46,636 nt of DNA from Actinomycetota bacterium. Its GTDB lineage: Bacteria; Actinomycetota; Acidimicrobiia; Acidimicrobiales; Ilumatobacteraceae. Numbering within the stretch: the stretch's first letter is position 1; every line of letters begins with the position of its first letter. A program made the position numbers and the translations under genes. Positions 3,631 through 36,904 of the stretch are shown here, in pieces. The stretch lies in the NCBI GenBank assembly GCA_009698745.1, contig WLPO01000001.1, forward strand, positions 1-46,636, in the 5' to 3' direction. A model generated the notes under the pieces. That model ran no database searches. It was not told where the DNA came from and saw only the letters and a program-made list of their open reading frames with translations.

Positions 3631-4830
3631 ATGACTAAGAGTTGGACCGCGCTCGGCGTACCCGAGAGAATCGTTGCAGGCCTATTGAAGCGAGGAATCG
3701 CGGAGCCGTTTCCAGTGCAGGCAGCAACAATCCCAGAATCATTGATGGGACTGGACATTTGTGGCAAGGCACCTACAGGCTCGGGCAAAACCCTTGCTTT
3801 CGGTATTGCATTGGCTGTCAAAGTTGTCAAAGCCAAGCCAGGCCGCCCACATGGATTGGTGCTCGTGCCAACCCGTGAGCTTGCTGCTCAGGTTGCAAAA
3901 GAAGTTGCAATGTTGTGTGCGGGTGGTGGCATTACCGTTGCTGCTGTTTACGGTGGCGCTGGTTATGGCCCACAAGTAAAGGCTGCTCGTGCCGCAAGCA
4001 TCGTTGTGGCAACCCCAGGTCGTCTTGAGGACTTGATGAAGCGCCGCGATCTCGATTTGGGTGCAGTTGCACTCGTAGTTATTGACGAGGCCGACCGTAT
4101 GGCCGACATGGGCTTTATGCCAGCAGTGAAGCGCATTATGCGAACCATTCCTGGTGGCCGTCAAACCTTGTTGTTCTCGGCAACGCTTGATGGTGATGTC
4201 GACAACTTGATTCGTGAATTTCAGCGAGATCCGAAAAAGCATCAGGTAGCAGCCGCTGAAAATGGTGGCGAGATTGAGCATTTATTTTGGAACGTCAACC
4301 GCGACGAGCGAACTCGAATGGTTGCAGAAATTGCAAATCATTACGAACGTGCCATCGTGTTTTGTCGCACCAAGCATGGTTCTGACCGATTAGCAGGCAA
4401 TCTTGAGTCATTGGGTGTAGAGACCTGTGTTATTCACGGAAATCGTAGTCAAGCCCAGCGTGAGCGTGCGCTTGAGCAGTTTCGACGAGGCAAAGCAACA
4501 GTGATGGTTGCGACCGATGTTGCTGCTCGTGGTATTCACATTGATGCAGTGCCTGTTGTGGTGCACTTTGATTTGCCAGAAGATCCAAAAGACTACATTC
4601 ACCGTTCGGGCCGCACAGGTCGTGCAGGCGAGAAGGGTGTAGTTATCTCGTTTGTTGATAAGTCGATACGTAGATCAACAACGCAGTTGACAAAGAACAT
4701 GCCGTTCGATGTTGTGTTTGTTGATCCGCAGTTCGTTGACACCTCTGTGCCTGCACAGTCACCGCGACCTGGCTCAATCGGCACGGTTCGTACGCTTGCA
4801 CTTATTGGTGCAGGCCCTCAGCCTGAGTAG
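3631..4830 (+). CDS. DEAD-box ATP-dependent RNA helicase
   Basis: Q motif (PFPVQ), motif I APTGSGKT, motif II DEAD (VIDEADRM), SAT, and motif VI HRSGRTGRAG. Strong SD GAGGAG lies 7 nt upstream of the ATG. Confidence 0.95.
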   Translation: MTKSWTALGVPERIVAGLLKRGIAEPFPVQAATIPESLMGLDICGKAPTGSGKTLAFGIALAVKVVKAKPGRPHGLVLVPTRELAAQVAKEVAMLCAGGGITVAAVYGGAGYGPQVKAARAASIVVATPGRLEDLMKRRDLDLGAVALVVIDEADRMADMGFMPAVKRIMRTIPGGRQTLLFSATLDGDVDNLIREFQRDPKKHQVAAAENGGEIEHLFWNVNRDERTRMVAEIANHYERAIVFCRTKHGSDRLAGNLESLGVETCVIHGNRSQAQRERALEQFRRGKATVMVATDVAARGIHIDAVPVVVHFDLPEDPKDYIHRSGRTGRAGEKGVVISFVDKSIRRSTTQLTKNMPFDVVFVDPQFVDTSVPAQSPRPGSIGTVRTLALIGAGPQPE

Positions 4831-4831
4831 T

Positions 4832-4881
4832 TCACAAGCAAATATCTTGTGGCAAGTCACAAGCAAATATCTTGTGGCCGT
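4832..4881. repeat. 25-bp tandem direct repeat (2 copies, 22/25 identical), each containing a CACAAG-N7-CTTGTG hairpin
   Basis: tcacaagcaaatatcttgtggc occurs at 4832-4853 and 4857-4878. The second copy encodes the last 7 codons plus the stop of the minus-strand gene 4857-7127. The repeat lies between convergent genes. Confidence 0.95.
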
Positions 4882-7127
4882 ACTGGAACTCGTAGTAGTG
4901 CTTTTCCGGTTGCTGATCGAATTGCAGCGACGATTGCAGGTGTCACTGATATACAAGGTGGTTCGCCAATGCCTTTAGCGCCGAGTGGCGCTTGAGGTTC
5001 TGGCTCCTCAATCATGATCGCGACTACTCGTGGAGCATCCAGTGCGGTCGGCAATAGATAGTCGGTAAAGCTTGGGTTTTTAACACGACCATTGTCCATG
5101 ATGATCTCTTCCATGACAGCAAGACCAAGACCCTGCGCGATACCGCCTTCAAGCTGACCAATCGCCGATAATGGGTTGAGGACTCGTCCGACATCTTGCG
5201 CCGTAGCAATCTGTACAACCTTGACCAATCCAAGTTCGACGTCAACGTCAACTACGGCTCGATGGGCAACGAAGGCAAATGCAACGTGACAGTTGCCTTG
5301 ACCATTTTCGTCCAGATCTTCAGTCTTGCGGTGATGATGCTCAAAAGTCTCAGAGATGGTGATGCCTTGTGTTGCATCGGAGACACTGATGCGGAACGTT
5401 CCAACCGTATCGATGATGTCGGTATTCTCTACCATCAATCGAATTGGGTCAATGTTGTGAAGTTTTCCCACATGCTCAAAAAGACGCTCGCGAACCAATC
5501 GGCACGCACCATCGACGGCGCCACCGCTCATCCATGTTTGCCTAGAGGCAGAAGTTGATCCCGCTGAACCAATCTGTGTGTCGGACGTTTCGAGAACGAC
5601 TTCATCGATTCCGAGAACGCTTCGAGCTATCTGTGGCGCAAGAGTCACGAAGCCTTGTCCAACTTCGGACGTTGCAAATTTGAGCGATGCAACACCATCG
5701 GAGAGTGTGCAGCGTGCAGTTGCATAATCATCAAATCCCTCTGAATACATCAAGTTTTTGATGGAGACACCCCAGCCAACACCTCGAATGATGTTGTGTC
5801 TATCTGCCGTGCGACCGCTGCCACCCGGAAACTCAAGAACATTGGCCTTCTGTGACATCGGTTCTGGCATTGGTATTGCGTCGGTTTCACGGATGCAACG
5901 TTCGACTGGCGCGACACTTTCAACCGTTTGACCAGTGATGAGCTTGTCGCCAGTACGCATTGCGTTCTTGAGGCGAACATCAACCGGTGAAAGACCGCAC
6001 GCTGCTGCCAACAAATCCATTTGGCTTTCGTGAGCAAAACAGGCTTGTACGACACCAAAACCACGCATTGCACCACATGGTGGATTGTTGGTGCGTACGG
6101 CATAGCCGTCAACAATCGCGTTGTCGCACTGGTACGGCCCTTGAGTGTGAGTGATTCCGTTGATCAAGACTGCAGGGGAGGTACTCGTATAGGCGCCACC
6201 GTCGAAAACCATGCGGGATTCAATCTTGACGATTTTTCCGTCCTTGGTTGCGTGATGCTTCATCCAGATTTTGGCAGGATGGCGATGCACGTGTCCAAAG
6301 AAACTTTCTTCTCGGCTGTACTGCATTTTGATCGGTTTACCAGTGCGGAGAGCAAGCAAACAACAGTGAACCTGCAAACTAATGTCTTCACGCGCCCCGA
6401 ATGCGCCACCAACTCCGCCAAGCACGAGCCGAACATTCTCTTCTGGAAGCGCCAAACAAGCTGCTATCTGACCGCGATCTTCGTGCAACCATTGAGTGGC
6501 AATATGCAGTTCAACTCCATTTCCACCCGAATCGGGAAAAGCCATGGCGGCTTCAAGGCCAAGAAATGCTTGATCCTGCATTCCAATCGTGTAATTGCCT
6601 TCAACAGTTATATCTGATGCTGCGTTGGGGTCGCCATGCACAATGTGCTGATGCCGGATGAGGTTTCCGTCAGGATGAATCAGTTCGGTAGATGAAAGCA
6701 TTGCAAGTTCCGGGTCTACAACAGGAGTGAGTACTTCATAGTTGACGATGATTGCCTCAAGGGCTCGTCGGCAGGTTTCTGGATGATCTGCAGCGACAAT
6801 TGCGACTGGCTCGCCCATATAGCGCACATATTCGGATGCAAAGACGGGTTGGTCTGCGGAAATGAGACCGTAAGTTGCCTTGCCGGGAACATCTTGTGCA
6901 GTGAGCACTGCTGAGACACCGCTGATAAGTAGGGCAGGCGTTGTGTCAATTGAAATAATGCGGGCGTATGGATGAGGAGAGCGAAGTGTTGCACCCCACA
7001 ACATGTTTTCAGCCCACATATCCGAGGAAAATGAGAACGCGCCGGTAACTTTTGCAACTCCATCTGGGCGAAGTGCGCTGGCACCGAGAGTGTCTCTAGA
7101 ACGAACATCTTGTTTAGTGGCGCTCAT
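4857..7127 (-). CDS. Xanthine dehydrogenase/aldehyde oxidase-family molybdopterin-binding large subunit (CoxL/XdhB-like, non-CODH)
   Basis: 756 aa with an a/b-hammerhead N-terminus, GGAFGARED, RTNNPPCGAMRGFG (XDH type, not the CODH AYRCSFR loop) and a catalytic-Glu motif GIGEPP near the C-terminus. ATGA overlap with the upstream FeS subunit. Confidence 0.9.
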   Translation of the reverse strand: MSATKQDVRSRDTLGASALRPDGVAKVTGAFSFSSDMWAENMLWGATLRSPHPYARIISIDTTPALLISGVSAVLTAQDVPGKATYGLISADQPVFASEYVRYMGEPVAIVAADHPETCRRALEAIIVNYEVLTPVVDPELAMLSSTELIHPDGNLIRHQHIVHGDPNAASDITVEGNYTIGMQDQAFLGLEAAMAFPDSGGNGVELHIATQWLHEDRGQIAACLALPEENVRLVLGGVGGAFGAREDISLQVHCCLLALRTGKPIKMQYSREESFFGHVHRHPAKIWMKHHATKDGKIVKIESRMVFDGGAYTSTSPAVLINGITHTQGPYQCDNAIVDGYAVRTNNPPCGAMRGFGVVQACFAHESQMDLLAAACGLSPVDVRLKNAMRTGDKLITGQTVESVAPVERCIRETDAIPMPEPMSQKANVLEFPGGSGRTADRHNIIRGVGWGVSIKNLMYSEGFDDYATARCTLSDGVASLKFATSEVGQGFVTLAPQIARSVLGIDEVVLETSDTQIGSAGSTSASRQTWMSGGAVDGACRLVRERLFEHVGKLHNIDPIRLMVENTDIIDTVGTFRISVSDATQGITISETFEHHHRKTEDLDENGQGNCHVAFAFVAHRAVVDVDVELGLVKVVQIATAQDVGRVLNPLSAIGQLEGGIAQGLGLAVMEEIIMDNGRVKNPSFTDYLLPTALDAPRVVAIMIEEPEPQAPLGAKGIGEPPCISVTPAIVAAIRSATGKALLRVPVRPQDICL

Positions 7128-7654
7128 GAATTGGCCTTTCGAACTTGAACGACCGCTTCAACCGCAGCGAAGATACGTCCATAGCCTGTGCAGCGACAAA
7201 TATTGCCAGAAATAGATTCCTTCACTTCAAGTTCGGTTGGATCTGGGTTCTTGTCAAGGAGGTGATGCACAGCAACGATCAAGCCAGGAGTGCAAAAACC
7301 GCACTGCACTCCGCCTTCTGTAATGAAAGCCTGTTGAACATCTGTTACCTGGCTTGTTATCGCGTGAGCAGTGACCGCCATCGTGGGGTTTTGTTCAACC
7401 AGACCTTCGACGGTGACGATTTCGGATCCAACTGCAGTTGCAGCCATCACCAAACATGAGCACACTGCATCGCCGTCCATCAACACGGTGCAACTTCCGC
7501 ATTCGCCCTGCTCGCATGCGCCTTTGGCCCCGGGAAGTCCTAGACGTTCGCGCAAAACGTAGAGCAGGCTTTCGCCAACCCATGCATCCATAACCGCACG
7601 GTCTTGTCCGTTTACATGTAGCGAGTACATTTCGTTTCCAATTGGGTCGTTCAT
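7124..7654 (-). CDS. (2Fe-2S)-binding small subunit of a molybdenum hydroxylase (CoxS-like)
   Basis: 176 aa carrying CEQGECGSCTV (plant-type cluster) and QCGFCTPG...CRCTGY (second cluster). Confidence 0.95.
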   Translation of the reverse strand: MNDPIGNEMYSLHVNGQDRAVMDAWVGESLLYVLRERLGLPGAKGACEQGECGSCTVLMDGDAVCSCLVMAATAVGSEIVTVEGLVEQNPTMAVTAHAITSQVTDVQQAFITEGGVQCGFCTPGLIVAVHHLLDKNPDPTELEVKESISGNICRCTGYGRIFAAVEAVVQVRKANS

Positions 7655-8499
7655 GATGGATAAGCCCTTGTGATGAGTCGTTGCGCAAGCACCGATACTG
7701 CGTGCCGGCGGTATTCAGCAGTAGAACGGTGATCATCGATTGGTTTTGATTCGAGCGCTACGCGTCGACCGAACTCTTTTGCCAAATCGAGTTCAATCTT
7801 GGTTGAAGTTGAAAGATCGAACTGTTGCGTGAGCCAAGACTCCGCGTCGCGACAACGAATAATGGTTGGGCCAACTGCGCCAAGCGCAATACGAACAGAC
7901 TTCGTGGGCTTGTCGACTGCCAAGCACGCAGATGCAACCGATATGACCATCGCGTTTCGAACACCAACTTTTGTGTAACCTTGCCAACCGTTCAGTACTG
8001 GAATAGTCACTGCCGTGATGATTTCGTTTGCGTTGCGAGCATTTCGTTTGACACCTAGCATGAAATCGTGAATTGAGAGTTGGCGCGATACTTCGTTGCT
8101 TTGCAGATGAACAACTGCATCTACAGCAAACAGCACTGGCAATCCATCTCCAGCAGGTGAGCACGTTCCCAAATTGCCACCGAGGGTACCGGCAGCTCGA
8201 ATTTGAGGTGATCCAACTGTTCGTGCTGCTTCAGCGAGAGCAGGTACGAGTTGTTTGAGTTCTCCGGTCTCCATCTCTTGATAAGGCACACCAGCACCGA
8301 TTGTGATTGAGCCATCGGTGTTCTTTGTCCAAGTGCGCAACTCTTTAATGCGTCGTAATGCGATGATGTTGTGTGGCTTGAGGTGATTGAAATTGATCTC
8401 AACCATCATGTCTGTGCCACCCTGAATAAGGCGCGCGTCGGGGTTACTCGACAAGGCGTCGAGCGCCTCACTGATGGTGAGTGGTATTGCAACGGTCAT
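7651..8499 (-). CDS. FAD-binding medium subunit of a molybdenum hydroxylase (CoxM/XdhA FAD domain-like)
   Basis: 282 aa with GGTDMMVE and AGTLGGNL motifs of the CO dehydrogenase flavoprotein family. ATGA overlaps on both sides. Confidence 0.9.
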
Positions 8500-9539
8500 T
8501 GAATGCCATCCCAGTCCGCGAAAGTATCGATCATTGCCTTAACATCGCCGAGCGGATACAAAATAGGGCAAGTTGCCCCGTTGTCGATGTAATGCTTCAC
8601 GCTTGCTCGAACTTCAGCTGGAGTACCACTGGCGGTGAGCATTTGCACGATTTCGTCCGGTACCAATTTTGAGGCCGCTGTAACTTGCTCGTGAGTAGCC
8701 GGCCATGTCAAAACTTCACCAACTTTGTCAAGCAGACTTTGCGGAACACCTGAAGCTTTCATGATGTGCGGTTGTTGACCAAGATATTGAGTTACCATTT
8801 CGCGAGCCATGTTGAGTGCAGTCTTGCGATCCTCGTGCACACTGCACACGACGAGTTGTGGCCTGTCGATATCCGCAATTTTGCGGCCGGCCTTATCGGC
8901 ACCAGCAGTGAGAGCCTCAATGGCTTGCTTGTTGTAATCGGGGGAAACCAAGTAGTTGAGGACAACTCCATCGGCGATTTCTCCCGTGAGTTCCATCATC
9001 TGCATGCCAGTTGCACCGATATAGATCGGCACGTCTTTCGCGCGACGTTCTTGATAGACGTAATCCAATTCAATTCCATCGAACTTTACGAACTCGCCAT
9101 CAAACGTGACGGTCTCGTTGTGTAAAAGCGCTCGAACATTGAGCACGATCTCGCGCATTGCACGCAGCGGTTTGGCGCGAGATATGCCAACCTTCTGCGC
9201 CAACGGATCCCACCATGCGCCAATTCCGAGAATCACACGACCTGGAGCAAGGTCATCGAGAGTAGAGAATGTCGCGGCTAGTCGAGCTGGGTTGCGGCTC
9301 CAACAATCGACAACTCCTGAACCAACCTTGATCGTTTTAGTTACTGATGCGAAAGCAGCCATTGGCACTGTTGCTTCTCGAACAAGACGACTTTCAGCCT
9401 GCCACACAGCCTCAAAGCCCTTTGACTCTGCATATTGCGCGTACTCCATGCCTTCGCGAATGCGGTGGGCGTCTTGTAGATAGATGGCTACGCGAGCCTT
9501 GCCAGTTGCAGGATTAATTGCCTGAGTTGGTAATGACAT
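8496..9539 (-). CDS. LLM-class (luciferase-like) flavin/F420-dependent oxidoreductase
   Basis: 347 aa TIM-barrel LLM pattern ([31 protein letters not shown]). The cofactor (FMN vs F420) cannot be decided by eye. Confidence 0.8.
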
Positions 9540-10666
9540 TATTGCAACCTTTCAAATAGTCGTAATGCTTGTTCGTGTGCTTTTGCCCGAATTTCGTTGA
9601 TGTCAACTTTGGTTGGTAAACCGTCCTTGAGTACCACTTCACCATCAATGAGCACATCAGTAGCCCGAGTACCCGGCGTGAAAGCAACATGCCATGGGCT
9701 CTCGATCTGATCGTAATTCCATGTAACTGTGTCGGTTTGAGCTTCAGGGAAGATTTCGTATCCGTTTCGCAACCACTGTGCAACAGTTTCTGGAGTTTCA
9801 GTAATATCGAATTCGCGCAACCGTGCGTATGCCAGACGAGATTCTTCGAGCATGTCGGCTCCGATTCCATCGCTACCGAGCAGGATCGTGTTGGATTTTG
9901 TGGTTGGTGCGCCGTAGCCAACATGATTATTCATGTTTGATCGTGGGTTGTGCACAAGGCGACCGCGCAGGGGGGCTTTGAGTTGTACTCCGTGTACGAG
10001 TAACCAGTCATCAGCGGCCAGTTCGGACAAACGCGCTGCAGCTTGTGCGTCGTCGTCACCTTCGGCAACGTGAATATGAACTCCAACATGAAGTTGTTTC
10101 GCCAATTGTGCTGCGGCGTTCAAAGTCTCATCGCTGCACGTAAACGCGGCATGCACTCCGACCATTCCCGTACCACCCTCGGCGATGAATCGTTCACATT
10201 CGGCTAGACCTCTTTGAGCGGCATCAGTCATCTTTGACAGCGGTGACACTTTGGAATGCAATTGACCGCTGTTGTCCCATCGATCAGACACTCCATAACA
10301 CGTGTTTACTCTGACACCAACATCGCGGCACGCCTTATTGATAAGGGAAAGCGAACCTTCAATCATGTTTGGCGATTCATGATGATCGATTATCGCTGTC
10401 GTACCATTCATGAGTGCTTCTACTGCACCAAGTGCTGCAGACCAATAAATCATGTCGGCATCAAGCGCGGCATCGATACGCCACCACACTTGTTGCAACA
10501 CTTCAATGAACTTTGTGGGCGTATGCCGAGTGGCAGGCATCCCGCGAGCGAGTGAAGAGTACAAATGATGATGTGCGCAGACAAGTCCAGGCGTTGTGTT
10601 CGACACAGCGATTATTCTTCCGAATCGTCTGAAGATGATTTGAGCATTGGCAAAGTTGTGTGCCAT
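9539..10666 (-). CDS. ssnA: SsnA-family amidohydrolase (deaminase/chlorohydrolase subgroup), N-terminally short
   Basis: Metal ligands CAHHH, HIHVAE, VHGV and LGSDG. The blocks [19 protein letters not shown] and [15 protein letters not shown] match my recollection of E. coli SsnA. ATG at 10666 overlaps the upstream gene by 55 nt; an alternative GTG lies at 10606. Confidence 0.8.
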
Positions 10667-13224
10667 GTGCCGTTCAGTTCGCGAAATGCAGCAGCAACAG
10701 CGCCTGCAGTTGGCACTAGTCCAATCTCTCCGACACCCTTGATTCCGTACGGTGAATTTGGTTGCGGTGATTCAACCAAGATGACCTCAATCGCAGGAAC
10801 ATCTTTGGCACGCAAAATTTTAAGAGATCTCAATGTTTTGTTGATGGGGAAGCCAGTCTGCGGATCGCTAGGGAAATCTTCAGATAGTGCGTAGCCCAAA
10901 CCCATATGAACACTGCCTTCAATTTGGCCCTCGCAAAGTTGAGGATTGACTGCTTTGCCAACATCGTGAGCAGCAACAACTCGCTCAATTTTGTTGGTCT
11001 CTCGATCCATGACAACCATTTGTGCTGCGTATCCAAAGGTTGAGTGAATAATTGGATTGATTACATCGGGGTCTCCGAGCTTGGTCGTCCAATCGACTCG
11101 ATACTCGCCGTAGTGATCAATACCGATTGCGCAATTTGCTGCCTTGGCTGTGTCGCATGCATCTTTTACAGCTCCTGCGCCCATCAATGTGCCGCGAGAT
11201 CCAGTTGTTTGACCAAGGCCCAATTCGCGAGTTGTATCAACAATTACGTCTATGAGATTGCCGTCAATGCCAAGTTCGTGCACAGCAACTTGAAGCGCAA
11301 CCGTGTTGATGCCTTGACCCATTTCGGTCCAACCATGGCGAACTTCAACGCGGCCATCTTCTTTAAATCGGATTACTGCGCGATTGATTTCCTTAAATCC
11401 GTTTCCAAGACCGCTGTTTTTGAGCCCTAGTCCCAACCCGACGGCCTTGCCAGATGCGCGCGCGGCGTCATAAGCAGGCTTTATTGCCTTGAGGCATTCC
11501 GATGCACCGAGACAACCGTCGTCCATGATTTGACCTGGACCCCAAACTTGGCCGGGCATGATGACATTGAGTTGTCGCATAGACCATCCATCGATGCCTA
11601 CCTTTTCGGCAAGCCGATCAATCACACCTTCCATTGCAAACTGGGCTTGGTTCGCTCCGAAGCCCCGAAATGCGCCGCAAACAGGGTTGTTCGTGCGCAC
11701 AGCAATTGCCTCAACATCGATGTTTGGTACTTGGTAAGGACCACTTGCATGACCGGCCATGCGTTCGAGAACCTTCATGCCGACGCTTGCGTATGCGCCA
11801 GAATCACCGATTGCACGCACATGCAGAGCTGTGAGCTTGCCCTGCTTGTCGCACGATGCCTTGTACTTCATCGTGATTGGGTGTCGCTTGGCATGCATTA
11901 AGAGACTTTCTTCGCGTGAAAGTGTGCATTTGACCGGAGTTTGCAAAAGCCAGGCACTTAAGGCTGTGTGTGCTTGATTGCTCATGTCTTCTTTGCCGCC
12001 AAAGGCCCCGCCGTTGGTGACAAGTTCGACCGTGACTTGGGAATTGTCGAGTTTCAAGAGTTTTGCGATGTCATTGCGGTCATCCCAAATACCTTGGCCG
12101 CCGGAATAGACGTGCAGAGACTTGCTATCAGCAGAAGGAACAGCAACTGTGCTTTCTGGTTCGAGAAATGCATGCTCGATTCGTTGCGTTACGAAAGTTT
12201 CTTCGACAACATATTCGCTATTTTGTAGAGCAGCAGAAGCGTCACCGCGTTCATACCGACTCGTGCTTAAAACGTTGTTGTCAGTTTTCCATACTGCAAC
12301 TTCAGCGTTAGCGAGGGCAGCGAGTGGATCGGTAATGGGTTGATGCACGGTGTAATCAATAACGACCGCATGAGTCGCAGCTCTTGCATGATCTCGCGTG
12401 TCGGCAACAACTATGGCGAGCACGTCACCTGCGTAGGAGGTTCTGCCACCAACCGGAATCATGACTGGCCAATCTTTGTAAATGATTCCAACCATCAATT
12501 CGCCCGGAATATCAGCTGCAGTAAACACAGCTTGAACGCCGGGCATATTCAGTGCGTTTGCAGCATTTATTGCGTTGACGTCTGCTCGAGTGTGTTGCGT
12601 GAAAACTAATGCAGCATGCAACATGCCTGGTATACGGATGTCGTCAATGTATCCGCGATCACCAAGCGCAAGAGCTTCTGCTTCGTACTTAATCGTGCGG
12701 CTTCCGACGCCACCTGGTTTGACCATGACCGGAACTTCACCGCGAGCGACCATCTCGATCGCATCAAGAATTTTTACGTATCCAGTGCAACGACACAAGT
12801 GGGCACCAAGATGTTTTGCCATGTCGCTGCGCACGAGGTCAGCGCCCTTTTTGTCGACTTGAGCTTTAGCCCGGACCACAATGCCCGGTATACAAAAACC
12901 ACACTGCAAACCACCACAAGCCGCAAATGCTTGAGCGTAGGTATTGCGTTCGGACTCAGATACTCCTTCAAGAGTGACAACGGTTGAGCCAGCGACCTTG
13001 GTGAGAGGAGTCTGACAACTCACAACTGCTTTGCCATTGACAAGGACCGTGCAGCAACCGCACTGACCAGAAGGCGAGCAGCCGTCTTTTGGTGAAGTGA
13101 TGTTGAGTTCTTCCCGCAATGCGGCCAATAAATGGGGGTGATCAGAGCGAACCGTCACCGGAGTTTCGTTGACGGTAAACGCGATATTTTCAACTTGCGA
13201 TGCGCTTAAATCCATAGCAGTCAC
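10612..13224 (-). CDS. Fused [2Fe-2S] + molybdopterin-binding hydroxylase (XdhD / D. gigas MOP-type architecture, no FAD domain)
   Basis: 870 aa. The N-terminus has GCSPSGQCGCCTV and QCGFCIPG...CRCTGY FeS motifs. These are followed by hammerhead and MoCo domains with GGAFGGKED, RTNNPVCGAFRGFG and GVGE catalytic-Glu motifs. GTG start. Confidence 0.9.
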   Translation of the reverse strand: MTAMDLSASQVENIAFTVNETPVTVRSDHPHLLAALREELNITSPKDGCSPSGQCGCCTVLVNGKAVVSCQTPLTKVAGSTVVTLEGVSESERNTYAQAFAACGGLQCGFCIPGIVVRAKAQVDKKGADLVRSDMAKHLGAHLCRCTGYVKILDAIEMVARGEVPVMVKPGGVGSRTIKYEAEALALGDRGYIDDIRIPGMLHAALVFTQHTRADVNAINAANALNMPGVQAVFTAADIPGELMVGIIYKDWPVMIPVGGRTSYAGDVLAIVVADTRDHARAATHAVVIDYTVHQPITDPLAALANAEVAVWKTDNNVLSTSRYERGDASAALQNSEYVVEETFVTQRIEHAFLEPESTVAVPSADSKSLHVYSGGQGIWDDRNDIAKLLKLDNSQVTVELVTNGGAFGGKEDMSNQAHTALSAWLLQTPVKCTLSREESLLMHAKRHPITMKYKASCDKQGKLTALHVRAIGDSGAYASVGMKVLERMAGHASGPYQVPNIDVEAIAVRTNNPVCGAFRGFGANQAQFAMEGVIDRLAEKVGIDGWSMRQLNVIMPGQVWGPGQIMDDGCLGASECLKAIKPAYDAARASGKAVGLGLGLKNSGLGNGFKEINRAVIRFKEDGRVEVRHGWTEMGQGINTVALQVAVHELGIDGNLIDVIVDTTRELGLGQTTGSRGTLMGAGAVKDACDTAKAANCAIGIDHYGEYRVDWTTKLGDPDVINPIIHSTFGYAAQMVVMDRETNKIERVVAAHDVGKAVNPQLCEGQIEGSVHMGLGYALSEDFPSDPQTGFPINKTLRSLKILRAKDVPAIEVILVESPQPNSPYGIKGVGEIGLVPTAGAVAAAFRELNGTWHTTLPMLKSSSDDSEE

Positions 13225-13231
13225 GGGTTTT

Positions 13232-13237
13232 ACGCTA
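13232..13237 (-). promoter_or_regulatory. Candidate -10 box (TAGCGT on the minus strand) 7 nt upstream of the GTG at 13224
   Basis: The minus strand reads ctgTAGCGTaaaacccGTG. No SD is present. It lies in the only intergenic gap (60 bp, AT-rich) of the 4857-15493 block. Confidence 0.4.
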
Positions 13238-13284
13238 CAGCATTTACTTTACAAAATGTTAAGCAATAACCATTTCCCCTGGGG

Positions 13285-14208
13285 TCAGTCGAGAACGGTT
13301 CCGCGTTGCGCGGTGATTCGGCCATACACCTCTGGGCGGCGGTATTTGTCAAAGTCGAACAGCGTTTCCTTGTATTGCTTGCACCAATCGAGGTCGCACA
13401 CCGCCGAGACCAATTCATCCTCAGTTGTTGTGGTTTTTGCCAAGATCTCGCCAGACGGTGCAATGATGCTCGAATCACACAAGCCCAATACACCTTCTTC
13501 AACGCCACCTTTGGCAACGCCGATAACGAATGTGCCGTTTTGGTATGCGCCACTTTGCATGACCAGAGCATTATGAAATCCTTGCAAAATATCCTGCGAT
13601 GGATCTGGCACATAATGCATTGGCGTGTTGTATCCGCACAAGATCATTTCCACACCCTGAAGCCCCATCACGCGGTACGACTCGGGCCAGCGACGGTCAT
13701 TGCAAATCATCATTCCAAGTCGACCACCAAATGCCTTCCAAACTCCGAAGCCCTCTTCGCTCGGTGTGAAGTAATAGCGCTCTGCATGTTGAAAGGGTCG
13801 ATCGGGTTCGTGTTTTGCATGGCCCGGAATGTGAACTTTGCGGTATTTAGCGACAACTGAACCGTCACGTTCAACCAAGATTTGTGTATTGAAACGCTCG
13901 CCTTGTGGAGTGAGTTCTGCATAGCCGAGACAAAAACCAATGCCGAGGCGCTTCGCTTCTGTAAATAGTGGGAGAGTGACTGGCGAGGGCATTTCGGTTT
14001 CGTACCAATGGTGAGCTTCCGAAATATCGTCTACAAACCACCGAGGGAAAAATGTTGTGAGTGCAAGTTCAGGAAAAACAACAAGATCACAACTTGCAGA
14101 TTTGGCTTGATGGAGAAGTGCAATTAATCGCTTCACTACTGATGCGCGATCATCTTCTTTTTGAATCGGGCCAAGTTGTGCGGCTCCAACGGTGATCAAT
14201 CTGGACAT
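13285..14208 (-). CDS. N-carbamoyl-D-amino-acid hydrolase-like carbamoylase (nitrilase/CN-hydrolase superfamily)
   Basis: Close by eye to Agrobacterium D-carbamoylase: FPELALTTFFPRW (Glu), KYRKVHIPG (Lys) and MICNDRRWPE (Cys). ATG at 14208 (MSRLITVGAAQLGPI) aligns with the DCase N-terminus. The longest ORF starts at TTG 14235. Confidence 0.85.
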   Translation of the reverse strand: MSRLITVGAAQLGPIQKEDDRASVVKRLIALLHQAKSASCDLVVFPELALTTFFPRWFVDDISEAHHWYETEMPSPVTLPLFTEAKRLGIGFCLGYAELTPQGERFNTQILVERDGSVVAKYRKVHIPGHAKHEPDRPFQHAERYYFTPSEEGFGVWKAFGGRLGMMICNDRRWPESYRVMGLQGVEMILCGYNTPMHYVPDPSQDILQGFHNALVMQSGAYQNGTFVIGVAKGGVEEGVLGLCDSSIIAPSGEILAKTTTTEDELVSAVCDLDWCKQYKETLFDFDKYRRPEVYGRITAQRGTVLD

Positions 14209-14221
14209 GAGATCAATACTT

Positions 14222-15493
14222 TCATACTTTGGCAAAATCGGTGGAGCAGAGATTCAACATCGCATGCAGCAAGATATTGGCTCCTGCTACAAGGTCGTCA
14301 GTCTCGGTATCTTCGGCCGGATTATGACTGATGCCGTTGATGCTTGGTACGAAGATCATTGCAGTTGGACAGACCCTTGCAAGCATTTGTGCATCATGAC
14401 CTGCGCCGGATGGCATGCGTTGTGTGGTGTTGCCAAGGTCGTTGGATATTTGCTCAATGACGGCAACAACACGCTCGTCGAACTCGACTGGCTCGAATCT
14501 CGCAAGTTTCTTGGTAGTAATTGTGACGCCCTCTGAAGTTGCTATCTCGTTAAGAAAAGCTGCGACCTCCATTTCTGCACGTTGCAGCAAGTACTCGTCG
14601 GTGTTGCGAATATCCAGCGTCATTGTGACTCTGGCAGCTACGACGTTTATCAAATTAGGAAAGACATCGACCTTGCCAACAGTGCAGACCTGGTGTGAAC
14701 CGTACCGAGCGCTCAATTTTCGAAGAAAGACGGCGATCTCTGCTGCCACGTAGGTTGGATCATGACGCAATGACATGGGCGTAGTGCCAGCATGGTTTGA
14801 TTGTCCAACAATAGTTACTTCTTGCCATGAGATTCCCTGAACGCCAGTTACTGCACCGATGCGAACATCATTTGCTTCGAGTAATGGTCCTTGTTCGATA
14901 TGTAGCTCCACAAAGGCGTGAGGAATTACTCCGGGGCATGGGGCAGATCCTGCGTATCCGATTCGTACGAGTTCATCGCCAAGTCGCGGACCGTCAATAG
15001 CGGTGATGTCAAGCGCTTCTTCTGTGGTCATACCACCGACATACACCAGTGATCCAAGCATGTCCGGCGCAAAACGTGCACCTTCTTCGTCGGTAAAAAT
15101 TCCAACAGCCAAGGGGTGGTCTGGAGTCACACCGTTCTGTTGACACGTTTGCACGACTTCTAATCCGGCAATAACGCCGTAGTTGCCGTCAAACTTTCCT
15201 CCAGTGCGAACTGTGTCAATGTGGCTCCCGGTCATAACTGGCGGACCCGAACCCACATTCCATACCGCAATGATGTTGCCAACAGCATCAACTGAAACTT
15301 CCATATTGAGATCGCGCATCCATGAAACCACAAGATCACGACCGTCGCGATCATCGTCGGTGAGCGCCAGCCGGCAGTTGCCGCCTCCAGCAATGGGCGA
15401 AATCTCTGCCAAACTCATGATTCGGTCCATCAGTCGAGCCGCATCGATGCTTAGCTCGTGATTGATCGAGGAGTTATTGGCGTTCGCACCCAT
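14222..15493 (-). CDS. M20-family Zn-dependent ureidohydrolase (allantoate amidohydrolase / N-carbamoyl-L-amino-acid hydrolase / beta-ureidopropionase, AmaB-AllC family)
   Basis: 423 aa with GSHIDTVRTGGKFDGNYGV, HIEQGPLLE, NHAGTTPM and SGAGHDAQ...MIFVPSINGISHNP motifs. Confidence 0.9.
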   Translation of the reverse strand: MGANANNSSINHELSIDAARLMDRIMSLAEISPIAGGGNCRLALTDDDRDGRDLVVSWMRDLNMEVSVDAVGNIIAVWNVGSGPPVMTGSHIDTVRTGGKFDGNYGVIAGLEVVQTCQQNGVTPDHPLAVGIFTDEEGARFAPDMLGSLVYVGGMTTEEALDITAIDGPRLGDELVRIGYAGSAPCPGVIPHAFVELHIEQGPLLEANDVRIGAVTGVQGISWQEVTIVGQSNHAGTTPMSLRHDPTYVAAEIAVFLRKLSARYGSHQVCTVGKVDVFPNLINVVAARVTMTLDIRNTDEYLLQRAEMEVAAFLNEIATSEGVTITTKKLARFEPVEFDERVVAVIEQISNDLGNTTQRMPSGAGHDAQMLARVCPTAMIFVPSINGISHNPAEDTETDDLVAGANILLHAMLNLCSTDFAKV

Positions 15494-15500
15494 GCTTCTC

Positions 15501-15506
15501 AGTGTA
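15501..15506 (-). promoter_or_regulatory. Candidate -10 box (TACACT on the minus strand) 7 nt upstream of the ATG at 15493 (leaderless-type)
   Basis: The minus strand reads TACACTgagaagcATG. There is no SD, and the whole divergent spacer is only 41 bp. Confidence 0.45.
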
Positions 15507-15534
15507 GAGATCAGGCGGCGGTAAATGTAAGAAT

Positions 15535-16887
15535 ATGCGTGTGATCAACAGATCGAAACTCGCTAAAGCCTTAGCAAGCGAGGAGCAATTATTTTGCGAC
15601 ATTCATCCGAAGTCGCTTGCACTTGCGCATTCGGCCCATGACGCGTTGCTTTCTGGTGTTCCAATGCCGTGGATGACGAGATGGCCTGGGAGTTTTCCAT
15701 TGCATGTTCAAAAGGCGTACGGAGCACGCTTTGTCGATGTCGATGACATTGAGTACATAGATTTCTGTCTGGGCGATACAGGGGCTATGACTGGTCATGC
15801 TCTTGAAGCGGTTTCAGCAGCGGTTACTCGACAAGCACAATTGGGTTTAACCACGATGCTTCCCACATCAGACGCGCAGTGGGTTGCGGAGAATCTTGCA
15901 CAACGTTTTGGTTTGCCAAAATGGCAATTTTCTATTAGTGCTACGGATGCAAATAGGTTTGTTTTACGTTTTGCGCGAATGTTGACTGGTCGACCAAAGG
16001 TTGTAGTGCACGATTGGTGTTACCACGGTTCAGTTGATGAAACACTTGTGATACTCAATGAACGTGGTGAGACGGTAAGTCGTCCTGGGGCGATTGGTCC
16101 ACAAGTTGAACCAGCATTAACAACCCGCGCCGTCCCATTTAATGATCTCGAAGCGCTTGAAGCTGCACTCGCAATTGGTGACGTTGCGTGTGTACTCATT
16201 GAGCCAGCACTGACCAATATTGGAATAGTGTTGCCACTCGACGGATACATAACTGGTCTGCGCGCGTTAACACGCAAGTACGACGTGTTGTTGGTTGTTG
16301 ATGAGACTCACACAATTTGTGCTGGTACTGGTGGATGCACCAAGTTGTGGGCAATAGATCCTGATTTTGTAGTCATCGGCAAAACGATTGGTGGTGGAAT
16401 TCCTGTTGGCGCATACGGGATGACTGCGGAGATTGCACAACGGCTTGAACGCGAGATGTCCGGTCACGACGTAGACGTTTCTGGTGTGGGCGGTACGTTG
16501 AGTGGAAGTGCTCTGGCGATGAGCGCGATGAAAGCAACCCTCTCTCATGCGTTGCAAGATGAAGATTTCGCAAAGACCGTCCCTCTTGCGACACGTTGGA
16601 CTCAGGGCGTTCAAGAGGCATGCAACAATCAGAAGCTCGATTGGCACGTGCAACAGCTCGGATGTCGGGCGGAATATTGGTTTTGTACTCCGCCAATAAA
16701 TGGAGCCCAAGCAGCTGCTGCGGTTGATCCAGAGCTTGAATCGTTCCTGCACTTGTTTTGTCTCAATCGAGGTGTGTTGCTGGCGCCATTTCACAACATG
16801 GCCCTGATGTCACCATTTCACAGCGAGATGGATGTCGATAGGCATTCAGAAGTGTTCGCTCAAGCACTTGCAGCAATAGTTGCATAA
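15535..16887 (+). CDS. Class III (GSA-aminomutase-like) PLP-dependent aminotransferase
   Basis: 450 aa with VVDETHT and the PLP-lysine motif VIGKTIGGG. Overall similarity is to glutamate-1-semialdehyde aminomutase-like transaminases, the subgroup that includes beta-amino-acid transaminases. Confidence 0.85.
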   Translation: MRVINRSKLAKALASEEQLFCDIHPKSLALAHSAHDALLSGVPMPWMTRWPGSFPLHVQKAYGARFVDVDDIEYIDFCLGDTGAMTGHALEAVSAAVTRQAQLGLTTMLPTSDAQWVAENLAQRFGLPKWQFSISATDANRFVLRFARMLTGRPKVVVHDWCYHGSVDETLVILNERGETVSRPGAIGPQVEPALTTRAVPFNDLEALEAALAIGDVACVLIEPALTNIGIVLPLDGYITGLRALTRKYDVLLVVDETHTICAGTGGCTKLWAIDPDFVVIGKTIGGGIPVGAYGMTAEIAQRLEREMSGHDVDVSGVGGTLSGSALAMSAMKATLSHALQDEDFAKTVPLATRWTQGVQEACNNQKLDWHVQQLGCRAEYWFCTPPINGAQAAAAVDPELESFLHLFCLNRGVLLAPFHNMALMSPFHSEMDVDRHSEVFAQALAAIVA

Positions 16888-16916
16888 CAACTCGGTGCAA
16901 TAGGGTAATTCGAATC

Positions 16917-17648
16917 ATGTTGCAAGAACATTTATTCATTGTTGCAACAATTATTCTTTTCACTTCCGTTATTCAGTCCATCGCAGGGTTTGGCTTTTCT
17001 TTGCTTGCGGTTCCTCTCATGGTGCTGTTTGTTGACCTGCATCAGGCCGTCATAGTTGCAACATTGTTGGGTACTGTCAGCAATTTTGGGCAGGCTTGGC
17101 AATTGCGTCACCACCAGCACAGGTCAATAGCGTTTCGCTTTATCGCTGCATCTTGTTTGGGTGCACCAATCGGACTTGTGCTCTTTAGATTTGCAAATCA
17201 AAGTGTGTTGAAAGCGTTGTTAGGAATTGCGGTGTTGTTTGGAGTGTGGATGCTCGCTCGTGGACGCGACTTACAACAGGCCCATGTATCGCTTGATTGG
17301 ACAATGGGCTGGTTGAGCGGGGTTTTGCTGATGGCGACATCTACAAATGGACCACCAATTGTTTTCACACTGCAAGCAAGACGCCTTACGCCCGACGTTC
17401 AGCGCGCAACGCTCAATCTCATTTTCTCAGTGACAAGCATCTTCAGCATTTTTGTTTTTGGGCTGTCTGGCAAGATTCACTCGGAAGAGGTTCGTTCTGC
17501 ACTATTTGTAACGCCAGTAATGCTGATTGGCGTTTATGCAGGCGTTGCATTACGCAAGCACATCAATGCTGTTGTATTTAAGAGGATGGTGTTGGTGCTA
17601 CTCACGCTCGGTGGAATAAGCAGCTTGGCGTCGTCATTGGTTGGCTAA
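16917..17648 (+). CDS. TauE/SafE-family anion (sulfite-type) exporter membrane protein
   Basis: 243 aa polytopic membrane protein with internal two-fold repeat character, typical of DUF81/TauE. Confidence 0.75.
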   Translation: MLQEHLFIVATIILFTSVIQSIAGFGFSLLAVPLMVLFVDLHQAVIVATLLGTVSNFGQAWQLRHHQHRSIAFRFIAASCLGAPIGLVLFRFANQSVLKALLGIAVLFGVWMLARGRDLQQAHVSLDWTMGWLSGVLLMATSTNGPPIVFTLQARRLTPDVQRATLNLIFSVTSIFSIFVFGLSGKIHSEEVRSALFVTPVMLIGVYAGVALRKHINAVVFKRMVLVLLTLGGISSLASSLVG

Positions 17649-18379
17649 CCAAACCATTGCATCCAATCCGCCTGCGTTTTCGGCTTGAAGACATAGTTGG
17701 TTTCACGTACTTCGTCAAGTGGTCGGGATGAAGGATCTGAATATCTATGTCCCGGAAAGACGATTGTTTTATCAGGCAGGGCAGCAAGAGTGTTGAGGCT
17801 TTCATACATCTGTTCAGGGTTCGATCCAGGAAGATCAGTGCGACCGCAGCCCTCGAGAAAAAGTGTGTCGCCAGCGACGAGGCAGTTGTCCACGAGGAAA
17901 CATTGACTGCCTGGTGTGTGGCCAGGGGTATGGATCAGACATATTTCAACCTGTCCGACCTTGATTGTGTCGCCAGGCTGATGTTGGTGCAGGTGATCAA
18001 CTGTTACGCCGGTAGTTCTCATCACCCATTCAGACTCGAGTTCTTGCACGTGAATTGGGATATCAACCTGATCGAGTAGCGCTGCGATGCCATCAATATT
18101 CCAACCCATCATCGAGCCCCCGACGTGATCGGGGTGATAGTGAGTTGCCAATGCACCAACCACTCGCATCTCATCAGTTGCTGCAATGTCGAGTAACTCC
18201 TTGACTGCATATGCAGGGTCTACGATCACGCATTCTCGGCTATCCGTATCTCCAATCAAGTACACAAAATTGACCATTTGCTCTGCCACTTGATTTCCGA
18301 TCGCGAAATCTCTACCCGATAATAATTGCCTGAAATACAGGGAACTTGACTGGGGGTTGGATTGGTTGCCGTCACTCAT
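17645..18379 (-). CDS. MBL-fold metallo-hydrolase, persulfide dioxygenase (ETHE1)/glyoxalase II-like
   Basis: THYHPDHVGG (HxHxDH), HTPGHTPG and GDTLFLEGCGRTDLPG. The GCGRTD motif favours the persulfide dioxygenase type. Confidence 0.75.
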   Translation of the reverse strand: MSDGNQSNPQSSSLYFRQLLSGRDFAIGNQVAEQMVNFVYLIGDTDSRECVIVDPAYAVKELLDIAATDEMRVVGALATHYHPDHVGGSMMGWNIDGIAALLDQVDIPIHVQELESEWVMRTTGVTVDHLHQHQPGDTIKVGQVEICLIHTPGHTPGSQCFLVDNCLVAGDTLFLEGCGRTDLPGSNPEQMYESLNTLAALPDKTIVFPGHRYSDPSSRPLDEVRETNYVFKPKTQADWMQWFG

Positions 18380-34251: not shown

Positions 34252-34254
34252 TCC

Positions 34255-36858: not shown

Positions 36859-36880
36859 TTCTTACATAGGGAAATGAAAA

Positions 36881-36904
36881 GGCCCCGAGCTTTCGCCCGG
36901 GGCC
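36881..36904. terminator. GC-rich hairpin terminator between convergent livF and the binding-protein gene
   Basis: GGCCCCG-N10-CGGGGCC. On the minus strand it is followed by TTTTCATTT, so it best fits termination of the 36933-38264 gene. It may act bidirectionally. Confidence 0.7.

Follow-up and report, generated by a model that had tools for sequence, protein, structure and literature searches.

Introduction

A reductive pathway of uric acid degradation proceeding via 2,8-dioxopurine was described in 2025 for gut anaerobes (Li et al., Life Metab, PMC12507026; Liu et al., bioRxiv 10.1101/2025.04.24.650524). In this pathway, urate is dehydroxylated to 2,8-dioxopurine by XdhD or XdhAC (DOPDH) and the product is reduced by YgfK or UacX, followed by SsnA-catalysed ring opening to ureidomethyl-hydantoin and a second ring opening by HyuA to 2,3-diureidopropionate; YgeW or UacY, together with YgeY, takes off the two ureido groups, and YgeX converts diaminopropionate to pyruvate (PMC12507026; 10.1101/2025.04.24.650524). 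Net turnover by YgfK is obtained only together with SsnA, the characterised DOPDH requires selenium and strict anoxia, and in Clostridium sporogenes urate is fed in by a separate xanthine dehydrogenase (XDH). The Escherichia coli cluster comprises xdhD-ygfM, ygfK, ssnA, hyuA, ygeW, yqeA, ygeY and ygeX, and clusters are also present in C. sporogenes, Clostridioides difficile and Enterococcus faecalis (PMC12507026; 10.1101/2025.04.24.650524). For SsnA clusters of Chloroflexota, a PF00296 'putative F420-dependent reductase' instead of YgfK was reported as a bioinformatic observation (Li et al., Fig. 3c and Discussion, PMC12507026). In the literature, we found neither a later paper on this F420-linked luciferase-like (LLM) variant or on Acidimicrobiia, nor anything relevant on purine genes in acIV/Ilumatobacteraceae. 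Here, we compare with this pathway a block of nine genes at positions 4857-16887 of contig WLPO01000001.1, from the genome of a freshwater member of the Ilumatobacteraceae (acIV, Acidimicrobiia); the whole stretch of 46,636 nucleotides (46.6 kb) that was analysed is referred to as the window.

The block is probably an Acidimicrobiia version of the reductive uric acid (2,8-dioxopurine, 'isoxanthine/yanthine') pathway, that is, the known pathway with replaced enzymes; we infer every enzymatic step from homology, motifs and conserved gene order. Judged by sequence, the window maps onto the published scheme at every step, save that the opening of the second ring and what becomes of diaminopropionate are not covered. 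What sets it apart are four non-orthologous replacements and a truncated marker enzyme, one of the replacements, LLM for YgfK, being already predicted in Chloroflexota. The reductive urate pathway is favoured mainly because the triad of molybdenum enzyme, SsnA and LLM protein recurs in related genomes and because the neighbouring genes give the picture of 'urate in, diaminopropionate out'.

A preliminary description of this DNA had presented the block as an uncharacterised system for the catabolism of an N-heterocycle. Its reading as a catabolic block for an aromatic N-heterocycle, with genes that look co-transcribed, and its occurrence in Actinomycetota stood, and the exact gene set is indeed undescribed, but the core is not: SsnA and the fused molybdenum enzyme are homologous to the core of the reductive urate pathway, so that for this part a related cluster with an experimentally assigned pathway is on record.

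Organisation of the Block

The ORF listing confirmed nine open reading frames (ORFs), namely eight co-directional genes on the minus strand (4857-15493) and one divergent gene on the plus strand (15535-16887). Pfam and NCBIfam profiles revealed their products to be an M20 amidase, a CN-hydrolase, a fused enzyme with two [2Fe-2S] domains and a molybdenum cofactor (MoCo) domain, an amidohydrolase, an LLM protein, the FAD, iron-sulfur (FeS) and MoCo subunits of an XDH-type enzyme, and a class III aminotransferase. ORFs, strands and domains were as first described, and the same holds for a 60-bp gap at 13225-13284, between the genes of the D-carbamoylase (the CN-hydrolase) and of the fused enzyme, and for the 41-bp spacer at 15494-15534, from which the M20 and aminotransferase genes diverge. 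Overlaps of 1 and 4 nt were found to be real at the SsnA/LLM, LLM/FAD, FAD/FeS and FeS/MoCo junctions, with the stop of the SsnA gene overlapping the start of the LLM gene by 1 nt.

Proposed Pathway

In the proposed scheme, the PucCDE-type XDH (4857-8499) would oxidise hypoxanthine and xanthine to urate, and the fused FeS-MoCo enzyme (10612-13224) would take the 6-oxo group off urate to give 2,8-dioxopurine; together, the two would isomerise xanthine to 2,8-dioxopurine without net redox change. A hydride, probably derived from F420H2, would then be provided by the Mer-like LLM protein (8496-9539) for dearomatisation of 2,8-dioxopurine. The short SsnA (9539-10606), translationally coupled to the LLM protein, would hydrolyse the pyrimidine ring and thereby pull the unfavourable reduction forward, its predicted product being ureidomethyl-hydantoin and/or 5-ureido-dihydrouracil. 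Opening of the remaining ring, yielding D-2,3-diureidopropionate, would be left to an enzyme encoded outside the window. From this intermediate, the D-carbamoylase (13285-14208) is predicted to remove the 2-ureido (alpha) group and the M20 amidohydrolase (14222-15493) the 3-ureido (beta) group, with 2,3-diaminopropionate, CO2 and NH3 as putative products. Diaminopropionate might finally pass to the aminotransferase (15535-16887), which resembles glutamate-1-semialdehyde aminomutase (GSAM), or, equally possibly, to a lyase encoded elsewhere.

The block shares with the urate clusters described in 2025 an SsnA-like amidohydrolase beside a putative reductase and a fused FeS-MoCo enzyme, the latter belonging to the E. 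faecalis/Collinsella group (40% and 37% identity). As in C. sporogenes, a separate XDH would feed urate, and there are two ureido-cleaving steps; furthermore, relatives of the block carry diaminopropionate lyase, hydantoinase and YqeB/YqeC genes beside the core. In contrast to these clusters, the reductase of the block is a Mer-like LLM protein rather than YgfK or UacX, its SsnA is about 50 N-terminal residues shorter, and a D-carbamoylase and an AmaB/AllC-type M20 enzyme stand in for YgeW/UacY and YgeY. No yield of carbamoyl phosphate or ATP would be expected from the block, because the D-carbamoylase and the M20 enzyme replace YgeW/UacY and YgeY. The window is also without HyuA, YgeX, carbamate kinase and selenium-trait genes, and the host is an apparently aerobic planktonic actinobacterium, whereas the described hosts are gut anaerobes.

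The same chemical logic underlies the reductive Pyd pathway (PydA/PydB/PydC), where a uracil-like ring is reduced and opened by an amidohydrolase before the ureido group is removed; the M20 enzyme of the block resembles the M20-type beta-alanine synthases. The analogy between the urate and Pyd pathways was made explicitly by Li et al. (PMC12507026). Unlike the Pyd pathway, the block lacks PydA/PydB homologues and has molybdenum enzymes and a second decarbamoylase, and its inferred substrate is a purine.

The Xanthine Dehydrogenase Subunits

Three minus-strand genes encode the XDH-type subunits, namely the FAD-binding subunit at 7651-8499 (FAD_binding_5 and CO_deh_flav_C domains), the [2Fe-2S] subunit at 7124-7654 (Fer2 and Fer2_2) and the MoCo large subunit of PucD type at 4857-7127. 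The large subunit passes the pucD equivalog TIGR03196 (825 bits; cut-off, 783.65) and possesses a GAMRGFG loop and the equivalents of bovine Glu802, Arg880 and Glu1261. For the FAD subunit, the best NCBIfam match was XdhB_XDHase with 190 bits, which is under the cut-off, as is its score for pucC; the best matches of the FeS subunit, XdhC_XDHase and pucE, were both under their cut-offs. A PucCDE-type XDH converting hypoxanthine and xanthine to urate is proposed.

The PucABCDE enzyme of Bacillus subtilis compares well in the three-subunit FAD/FeS/MoCo organisation and in the pucD equivalog being passed. Differences are that the FAD and FeS subunits of the block do not reach the cut-offs of pucC and pucE, that the block has no PucA/PucB-type maturation genes next to it, and that its downstream route is not that via uricase and allantoin.

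The MoCo-containing proteins of the block had both been taken for XDH-type enzymes rather than CO dehydrogenases on the basis of their GAMRGFG and GAFRGFG loops and the catalytic Glu; these motifs and the equivalents of Glu802, Arg880 and Glu1261 were seen in both, in agreement with that view. Assignment of the molybdenum enzymes as CO dehydrogenase, aldehyde oxidoreductase or 4-hydroxybenzoyl-CoA reductase was rejected, with scores far below those of the XDH-type models and the purine-binding Glu/Arg pair being present.

The Fused FeS-MoCo Enzyme

The gene at 10612-13224 (minus strand) encodes a fused 2x[2Fe-2S]-MoCo enzyme of TIGR03311 type without an FAD domain. Alignment with TIGR03311 ('selenium-dependent xanthine dehydrogenase') gave 820.4 bits over residues 16-861, corresponding to positions 3-842 of the 848-position model. 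The best matches in PLSDB were two genes with the same annotation, one from E. faecalis (40.4% identity, 595 bits) and one from Collinsella aerofaciens (37% identity). In the stretches fetched from these organisms (38.5 kb and 32.8 kb, respectively), the matching gene is the sole annotated molybdenum enzyme and lies in an ssnA-ygfK urate cluster, the order in E. faecalis being ssnA-ygfK-hydA-dpaL-ygeY-ygeW-arcC ... xdhC-xdh-mocA-sclA-selD-yedF ... yqeC-yqeB. In a bit-score matrix, the fused enzyme and its E. faecalis and Collinsella counterparts formed one group, the PucD type a second and XdhA/XdhD a third; the XDH large subunit of the block is placed in a group apart from the fused enzyme. 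A fused FeS-MoCo enzyme near ssnA, which is a feature of the described pathway, is present here: it has no FAD domain, its gene is directly upstream of that of SsnA, and it belongs to the E. faecalis/Collinsella sequence group.

The fused enzyme contains the canonical FeS cysteines, the GAFRGFG loop and the equivalents of bovine Glu802, Arg880 and Glu1261. At the position of bovine Ala1078 a Thr is found, as reported for DOPDH; the A1078T/S signature is common to the PucD-type subunit too and is, hence, not discriminating. We propose the fused protein to be a DOPDH-like urate/2,8-dioxopurine oxidoreductase. Two hydroxylations of the heterocycle had been postulated initially; two XDH-type molybdenum enzymes are indeed encoded, but the fused one would, by analogy, dehydroxylate urate to 2,8-dioxopurine instead of introducing a further hydroxyl group.

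The two PLSDB 'plasmid' records used for comparison, NZ_CP142821.1 (L082) and NZ_OY725717.1 (L083), show the canonical urate cluster adjoining housekeeping genes, with prfA, prmC and tdk in the E. faecalis record and ribosomal protein genes in the 900-kb 'plasmid 6' of Collinsella. Both records probably represent pieces of chromosomes, or chromids, that were labelled as plasmids.

The LLM Oxidoreductase

The LLM gene occupies 8496-9539 on the minus strand. Its product contains the Pfam domain Bac_luciferase, and the top NCBIfam match is Mer, the F420-dependent methylene-H4MPT reductase, with an E-value of 1.4e-53, compared with about 1e-12 for the FMN monooxygenases SsuD and luciferase. Among the 17 best NCBIfam matches, none of which reached its cut-off, 16 are F420 LLM families, the remaining one being TIGR04020, a family of FMN-dependent luciferase-like monooxygenases. 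Among solved structures, F420-dependent Mer proteins come closest (PDB 1z69, 4.4e-39), and the Mer clade constitutes the 'reductase group' of F420-dependent LLM proteins. By this placement, the protein is in the F420-dependent reductase (Mer) group, and it is proposed to be an F420H2-dependent 2,8-dioxopurine reductase replacing YgfK/UacX. Beside SsnA, its gene takes the place that ygfK has in E. coli. In the window, F420 biosynthesis or F420-reducing genes were not found.

A role as RutA-type or other FMN monooxygenase was rejected, given E-values of about 1e-53 for F420 reductases versus about 1e-12 for FMN monooxygenases. The 'redox or monooxygenase' step that had been postulated is thereby narrowed: the redox step was retained, whereas a monooxygenase was abandoned in favour of a reductive dearomatisation in line with the Mer group.

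With the Chloroflexota SsnA clusters, the block has in common the idea of a luciferase-family, presumably F420-dependent enzyme replacing YgfK/UacX beside SsnA. It differs in phylum and in that its short SsnA fails the family cut-offs, probably placing it outside the IPR017700-based network on which those clusters were recognised.

The Short SsnA-Like Amidohydrolase

The minus-strand gene of the SsnA-type amidohydrolase runs from a GTG at 10606 to 9539 and encodes 355 amino acids (aa). While the longest ORF begins with an ATG at 10666, the GTG is located 6 nt past the stop (10612-10614) of the fused-enzyme gene and is preceded by GGAAGA, and most orthologues are 353-357 aa long with their N-termini at an equivalent 14-residue stretch. 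GTG 10606 is, thus, most likely the start. The preliminary description had listed overlaps of 1-55 nt; those of 1 and 4 nt hold, whereas the 55-nt overlap between the fused-enzyme and SsnA genes is probably a longest-ORF artefact, because of the GTG 10606 start and the orthologue lengths.

The SsnA models NF005540 and TIGR03314 were the best NCBIfam matches (1.8e-74 and 7.7e-70), followed at a distance by 8-oxoguanine deaminase (9e-26). Identity to E. coli SsnA was 33% over residues 51-438 of the latter. The motifs HxH, WWRLDxALD, IDHH, HIHxAE, VHNxRSNMNNxVGY and GTDGIGxDM are shared with SsnA, and all except HxH are absent from neighbouring amidohydrolase families. These data are in line with the earlier suggestion of an SsnA-type, ring-opening amidohydrolase, although both SsnA models were matched below their curated cut-offs. 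For the short protein, we propose hydrolytic opening of the pyrimidine ring in reduced 2,8-dioxopurine. Its family is small, with 288 clusters at 50% identity (E <= 1e-30), of which the short form makes up essentially one; identity to the nearest full-length relatives is 37-46%, and one of these, from Bipolaricaulota, bears the NCBI name SsnA.

An AlphaFold (AF2) model of the short SsnA was obtained with a pLDDT of 90.8 and a pTM of 0.91. The nearest solved folds were isocytosine/8-oxoguanine deaminases and TRZ/ATZ hydrolases, none of the 50 matches listed being described as SsnA.

The Two Proposed Decarbamoylating Enzymes

The nitrilase-fold enzyme encoded at 13285-14208 (minus strand) aligns end to end with the solved N-carbamoyl-D-amino-acid hydrolases 8i99, 6le2 and 1fo6 (381-343 bits, E-values of 1e-113 to 1e-101), residues 1-303 matching residues 1-305 of 8i99 with 381 bits. 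As this full-length alignment begins exactly at 14208, the start at this position, which had been proposed before, is right, and the longest ORF (TTG 14235) is too long. The catalytic Glu, Lys and Cys are found in the motifs FPELAL, KYRKVH and MICNDRRW. By these marks, the protein is a true D-carbamoylase; as a functional analogue of YgeW/UacY, it would act on D-2,3-diureidopropionate and split off the 2-ureido group. Comparison with the gene sets of the 'hydantoinase process' (Agrobacterium, Nitratireductor and others) revealed a full-length match of orthologue grade (381 bits) with the catalytic triad present; what differs is that the D-carbamoylase here is found without a D-hydantoinase, inside an operon of molybdenum enzymes, SsnA and LLM protein.

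The M20 Zn-amidohydrolase of the AmaB/HyuC/AllC family is encoded at 14222-15493 (minus strand). It passes TIGR01879 (402 bits; cut-off, 204), NF006769 (453.4 vs. 452) and NF006771 (426.8 vs. 399), and the solved structures most similar to it are those of carbamoylase-family amidases and of the N-carbamoyl-beta-alanine amidohydrolase 8c46 (4e-84). A BLAST comparison with E. coli YgeY gave no match. Cleavage of the 3-(beta-)ureido group, converting albizziin to 2,3-diaminopropionate, is proposed for this enzyme, which would, thus, be a functional analogue of YgeY. An alpha-(D)-carbamoylase and a beta-ureido M20 amidase would be exactly what 2,3-diureidopropionate requires. The postulate of two carbamoylases acting in the block is in accordance with the alignment and triad of the former and the TIGR01879 score of the latter; overall, the comparison with characterised enzymes that had been suggested at the outset assigned families to the proteins, with 33% identity to E. 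coli SsnA and the pucD equivalog passed as well as the missing YgeY match among its outcomes.

NF006769 and NF006771 are both 'allantoate amidohydrolase' subfamilies, which brings into play an oxygen-compatible purine route via allantoate-type intermediates. In such a route, urate formed by XDH would be oxidised by the fused enzyme or by the LLM protein acting as a flavin monooxygenase, the SsnA-like protein would serve as deaminase or ring hydrolase and the M20 enzyme as allantoate amidohydrolase, and the nitrilase-fold enzyme would remove a further carbamoyl group. It would suit a host that is apparently aerobic, as evident from CtaA in the window, where selenium genes were not found, and the structural neighbours of the SsnA-like protein are deaminases. 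However, the LLM protein is related to F420 reductases (about 1e-53) rather than to FMN monooxygenases (about 1e-12) and has no flavin reductase partner, a true D-carbamoylase has no role in the allantoin route, the SsnA-specific motifs are conserved, and a diaminopropionate lyase gene lies beside the core in relatives. Moreover, genes for uricase, 5-hydroxyisourate (HIU) hydrolase, 2-oxo-4-hydroxy-4-carboxy-5-ureidoimidazoline (OHCU) decarboxylase and allantoinase as well as PydA-type and hydantoinase-type genes were not found anywhere in the 46.6-kb window, in keeping with the earlier statement that the canonical enzymes of purine degradation (uricase, allantoinase) and reductive pyrimidine degradation (PydA) are lacking. 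We consider the allantoate route improbable and retain the reductive urate pathway as the preferred assignment.

Conservation in Related Genomes

A scan with the LLM protein, one genome per species, revealed more than 590 related stretches, of which the best 80, all from Acidimicrobiia, were compared. Greedy longest-ORF calling on the loci of high G+C content produced antisense shadow ORFs (clusters c13, c14 and c19) and was replaced by tblastn, by which presence or absence was scored; counts refer to loci with enough flank. The closest loci (97-84% LLM identity) are from metagenome-assembled genomes of freshwater Ilumatobacteraceae/acIV; genomes of Microthrixaceae, of marine lineages and of sponge associates (Ca. 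Poriferisodalis) supply the more distant ones (74-78%).

The order M20 - D-carbamoylase - fused molybdenum enzyme - short SsnA - LLM is kept across loci, at times inverted relative to the LLM gene. SsnA was found near the LLM gene in 59 of 74 loci and the fused enzyme in 52 of 61; the values for the D-carbamoylase and the M20 enzyme were 46/59 and 34/54, followed by 19/42 for the PucD-type XDH and 17/53 for the aminotransferase. In 55 loci the LLM gene is directly downstream of that of SsnA. Conservation of the gene neighbourhood, which had been suggested as a check, was observed among Acidimicrobiia species representatives.

Several neighbours in relatives point to the two ends of the proposed pathway. 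An 8-oxoguanine deaminase gene (NF006055, 543 bits; cut-off, 532) follows directly after the LLM gene in L064, L065, L069 and L074 (about 10990-12290, plus strand) and is also present in L053 and L075. The product of 8-oxoguanine deaminase is urate, and oxidised guanine may be a physiological entry substrate in the marine lineages. A diaminopropionate ammonia-lyase (NF006058, 312 bits; cut-off, 276) is encoded next to the short SsnA in L070 and L071 and directly after the LLM gene in L076 and L077, and L062 has a D-hydantoinase gene (TIGR02033, 535 bits; cut-off, 393) five genes upstream.

In L065, L069, L074 and L075, a second, paralogous set is located a few kb from the primary core (e.g., L069:13016-20556, minus strand). 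It comprises a second LLM protein, an XdhC-like gene (scanned in L069), a full-length SsnA-like protein (440 aa) and an XdhD-like protein (973 aa; not resolved in L075). YqeB is encoded in all four of these loci, YqeC was resolved in L065 and L069, and a YgfM-like protein is present in L074; YqeB and YqeC are, furthermore, close to the primary core in L076. The recurring triad of molybdenum enzyme, SsnA and Mer-like LLM protein mirrors, by analogy, XdhD-SsnA-YgfK.

It could be argued that unrelated metabolic genes came together by chance and are held together by the close kinship of the genomes compared. The loci derive from one class, and the aminotransferase-TauE-MBL flank (MBL, metallo-beta-lactamase) shows just such lineage-restricted synteny. 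Against this, the order of the core holds down to 74% LLM identity and in freshwater, marine and sponge lineages with differing flanks and in both relative orientations (L061, L063, L070 and L071); starts and stops overlap by 1-4 nt, and the Mo-SsnA-LLM set recurs as a paralogue. Chance juxtaposition is, therefore, regarded as very improbable.

Two further arrangements were observed. In the marine Acidimicrobiia with a second set, a single locus, thus, encodes three XDH-family enzymes along with two Mo-SsnA-LLM triads. In L039-L041, L043 and L047-L049 (e.g., L040:7344-13869), the genes of the fused enzyme and the LLM protein are adjacent, without SsnA or carbamoylases; in most loci of the subclade, a class I/II aminotransferase and a 254-aa CN-hydrolase follow (L047 has the CN-hydrolase alone), and most have an FrhB/FdhB-like protein encoded a few genes away.

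Evidence Weighing against the Urate Assignment

Several observations do not fit the assignment to the reductive urate pathway or weaken it. In the 46.6-kb window, homologues of hydantoinase/dihydropyrimidinase, diaminopropionate lyase, YgeW/carbamate kinase and YgfK/UacX were not found, nor were selD, yqeB, yqeC and xdhC genes; for UacY, there was no Pfam match of its family PF07969 among the scanned window proteins, and no search with its sequence was made. A hydantoinase gene within 10 kb was found in only one of the 80 related loci (L062), and a subclade within L039-L049 has the fused enzyme and the LLM protein together with no SsnA nearby. The host looks aerobic, with a heme A synthase gene (CtaA) in the window, whereas the characterised DOPDH depends on selenium and anoxia. 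At the enzyme level, the SsnA-like protein is under both curated SsnA cut-offs (251 vs. 444 and 236 vs. 455.5 bits), because it lacks about 50 N-terminal residues typical of the family as well as two internal segments, and the fused enzyme misses the TIGR03311 cut-off of 830.45 by about 10 bits. The position of bovine Phe1009 (F1009V in DOPDH) falls in a two-residue indel of the fused enzyme, where Leu or Asn is found depending on the alignment, so that it can be termed 'non-aromatic' at most. The electron donor of this FAD-less enzyme and the presumed use of F420 by the LLM protein are weak points of the scheme.

E. coli XdhD Glu606 was suggested to orient urate (Li et al., PMC12507026). Comparison at this residue was not used, as the loop, in which the fused enzyme shows Asp and the large subunit Ser/Glu, aligns unreliably and the result is ambiguous.

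The sub-threshold scores of both the short SsnA and the fused enzyme would also be understandable if the same logic of molybdenum enzyme, F420 reductase, amidohydrolase and decarbamoylation served to degrade a different N-heterocycle from which ureido compounds arise (for instance, a pyrimidine, a pterin, a substituted hydantoin or a modified purine), with the XDH being a mere neighbour. XDH is adjacent in only 19 of 42 related loci, nicotinate dehydrogenase is the solved structure nearest to DOPDH-type enzymes, and D-carbamoylases are classically paired with hydantoinases acting on 5-substituted hydantoins. Yet the closest PLSDB relatives of the fused enzyme (E. faecalis and Collinsella) reside in ssnA-ygfK urate clusters, 8-oxoguanine deaminase and diaminopropionate lyase genes are immediate neighbours of the core in relatives, and the PucD equivalog is in the same operon here. 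In addition, two different ureido-cleaving enzymes are a better match for a purine, from which a C3 unit with two ureido groups remains, than for a pyrimidine or nicotinate. Another substrate is, thus, unlikely, and urate remains the preferred one.

The Aminotransferase

The plus-strand gene at 15535-16887 encodes a class III, GSAM-like aminotransferase of the PRK07046 family (NF005453, 623 bits; cut-off, 425), whose closest solved structure is the 'probable aminotransferase' 5ykr (5e-125), followed by GSAMs. Nothing relevant on PDB 5ykr/5ykt was found in the literature. The gene is missing from L020 and L030, where the M20 and MBL genes (and TauE where resolved) remain on that side, and it travels with the TauE-MBL flank; aminotransferase and diaminopropionate lyase were never found together in the loci examined. 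The divergent class III gene is real, as described before, but its membership in the system is weak, because only 17 of 53 related loci with enough flank have it and L020 and L030 do not. The GSAM family handles a vicinal diamine intermediate, and because of this property the protein is a candidate for conversion of diaminopropionate. Tentatively, we regard the aminotransferase as a loosely attached accessory, perhaps acting on 2,3-diaminopropionate in place of YgeX.

The 41-bp spacer (15494-15534) leaves almost no room for 5' leaders, and TAAATG/TAAGAAT elements are located directly before the ATG of the aminotransferase gene. Leaderless transcription, which is common in Actinobacteria, is possible from this spacer.

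Physiological Implications

So far, the reductive urate pathway has been presented as belonging to gut anaerobes and as requiring selenium as well as oxygen-sensitive Fe-S flavoenzymes. The block suggests that the same chemistry may have been rebuilt from other parts, namely a Mer-like LLM protein that is probably an F420-dependent reductase, a D-carbamoylase, an M20 amidase and a trimmed SsnA. Members of acIV/Ilumatobacteraceae and other Acidimicrobiia are abundant in lakes, oceans and sponges. If the assignment is true, genes now annotated as 'amidohydrolase family protein' or 'LLM class oxidoreductase' would obtain a function, purines and urate would join the nitrogen sources of freshwater Actinobacteria, and F420 would have a new physiological role; simpler, possibly oxygen-tolerant enzymes would also become available for engineered urate-degrading probiotics.

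A more far-reaching version, which is conceivable though rather doubtful, is an oxygen-tolerant, selenium-independent and F420-driven 2,8-dioxopurine pathway in aerobic planktonic and sponge-associated Acidimicrobiia, in which the short SsnA, possibly with the M20 enzyme, would dispense with the hydantoinase, and the GSAM-like transaminase, in place of a lyase, would act on diaminopropionate in Ilumatobacteraceae. In that oxygen-tolerant form, a supposed gut-anaerobe pathway would enter the oxic freshwater and marine nitrogen cycle.

Other Features of the Window

The G+C content of the window is about 50%. The flanking genes are apparently unrelated to the block: those on one side encode a DEAD-box helicase and an FAD-linked oxidase, those on the opposite side TauE, an MBL hydrolase, a sugar dehydrogenase and PanC. 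In the rest of the 46.6 kb, no more genes of purine or pyrimidine metabolism were found. A promoter and terminator scan of positions 4300-17800 gave counts at or below the shuffled expectation and is uninformative on operon boundaries. Scanning the whole window against Rfam revealed a tRNA-Leu only and no riboswitch.

A MobA-like NTP-transferase (PF12804, 4e-24) is encoded at 44195-44776 (plus strand), 27 kb from the operon, and gave no BLAST match to E. coli MocA at 1e-5. PF12804 is the domain family of the molybdenum-cofactor cytidylyl and guanylyl transferases, which are required for the molybdopterin cytosine dinucleotide (MCD) cofactor of XDH-family enzymes.

Just past the TauE-MBL flank, at 18362-20946 (plus strand), a Gfo/Idh/MocA oxidoreductase gene is followed by that of a 480-aa protein with weak likeness to glutamate-5-semialdehyde dehydrogenase (129 bits; cut-off, 289). 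A branched-chain-amino-acid-type ABC transporter is encoded at 32929-38264. Its components are a divergent binding protein of 443 aa, with a Peripla_BP_6 domain that does not begin before residue 202, two ATPases and two permeases, the first of which is extended N-terminally by about 150 residues. This transporter family also takes in urea and amide transporters.

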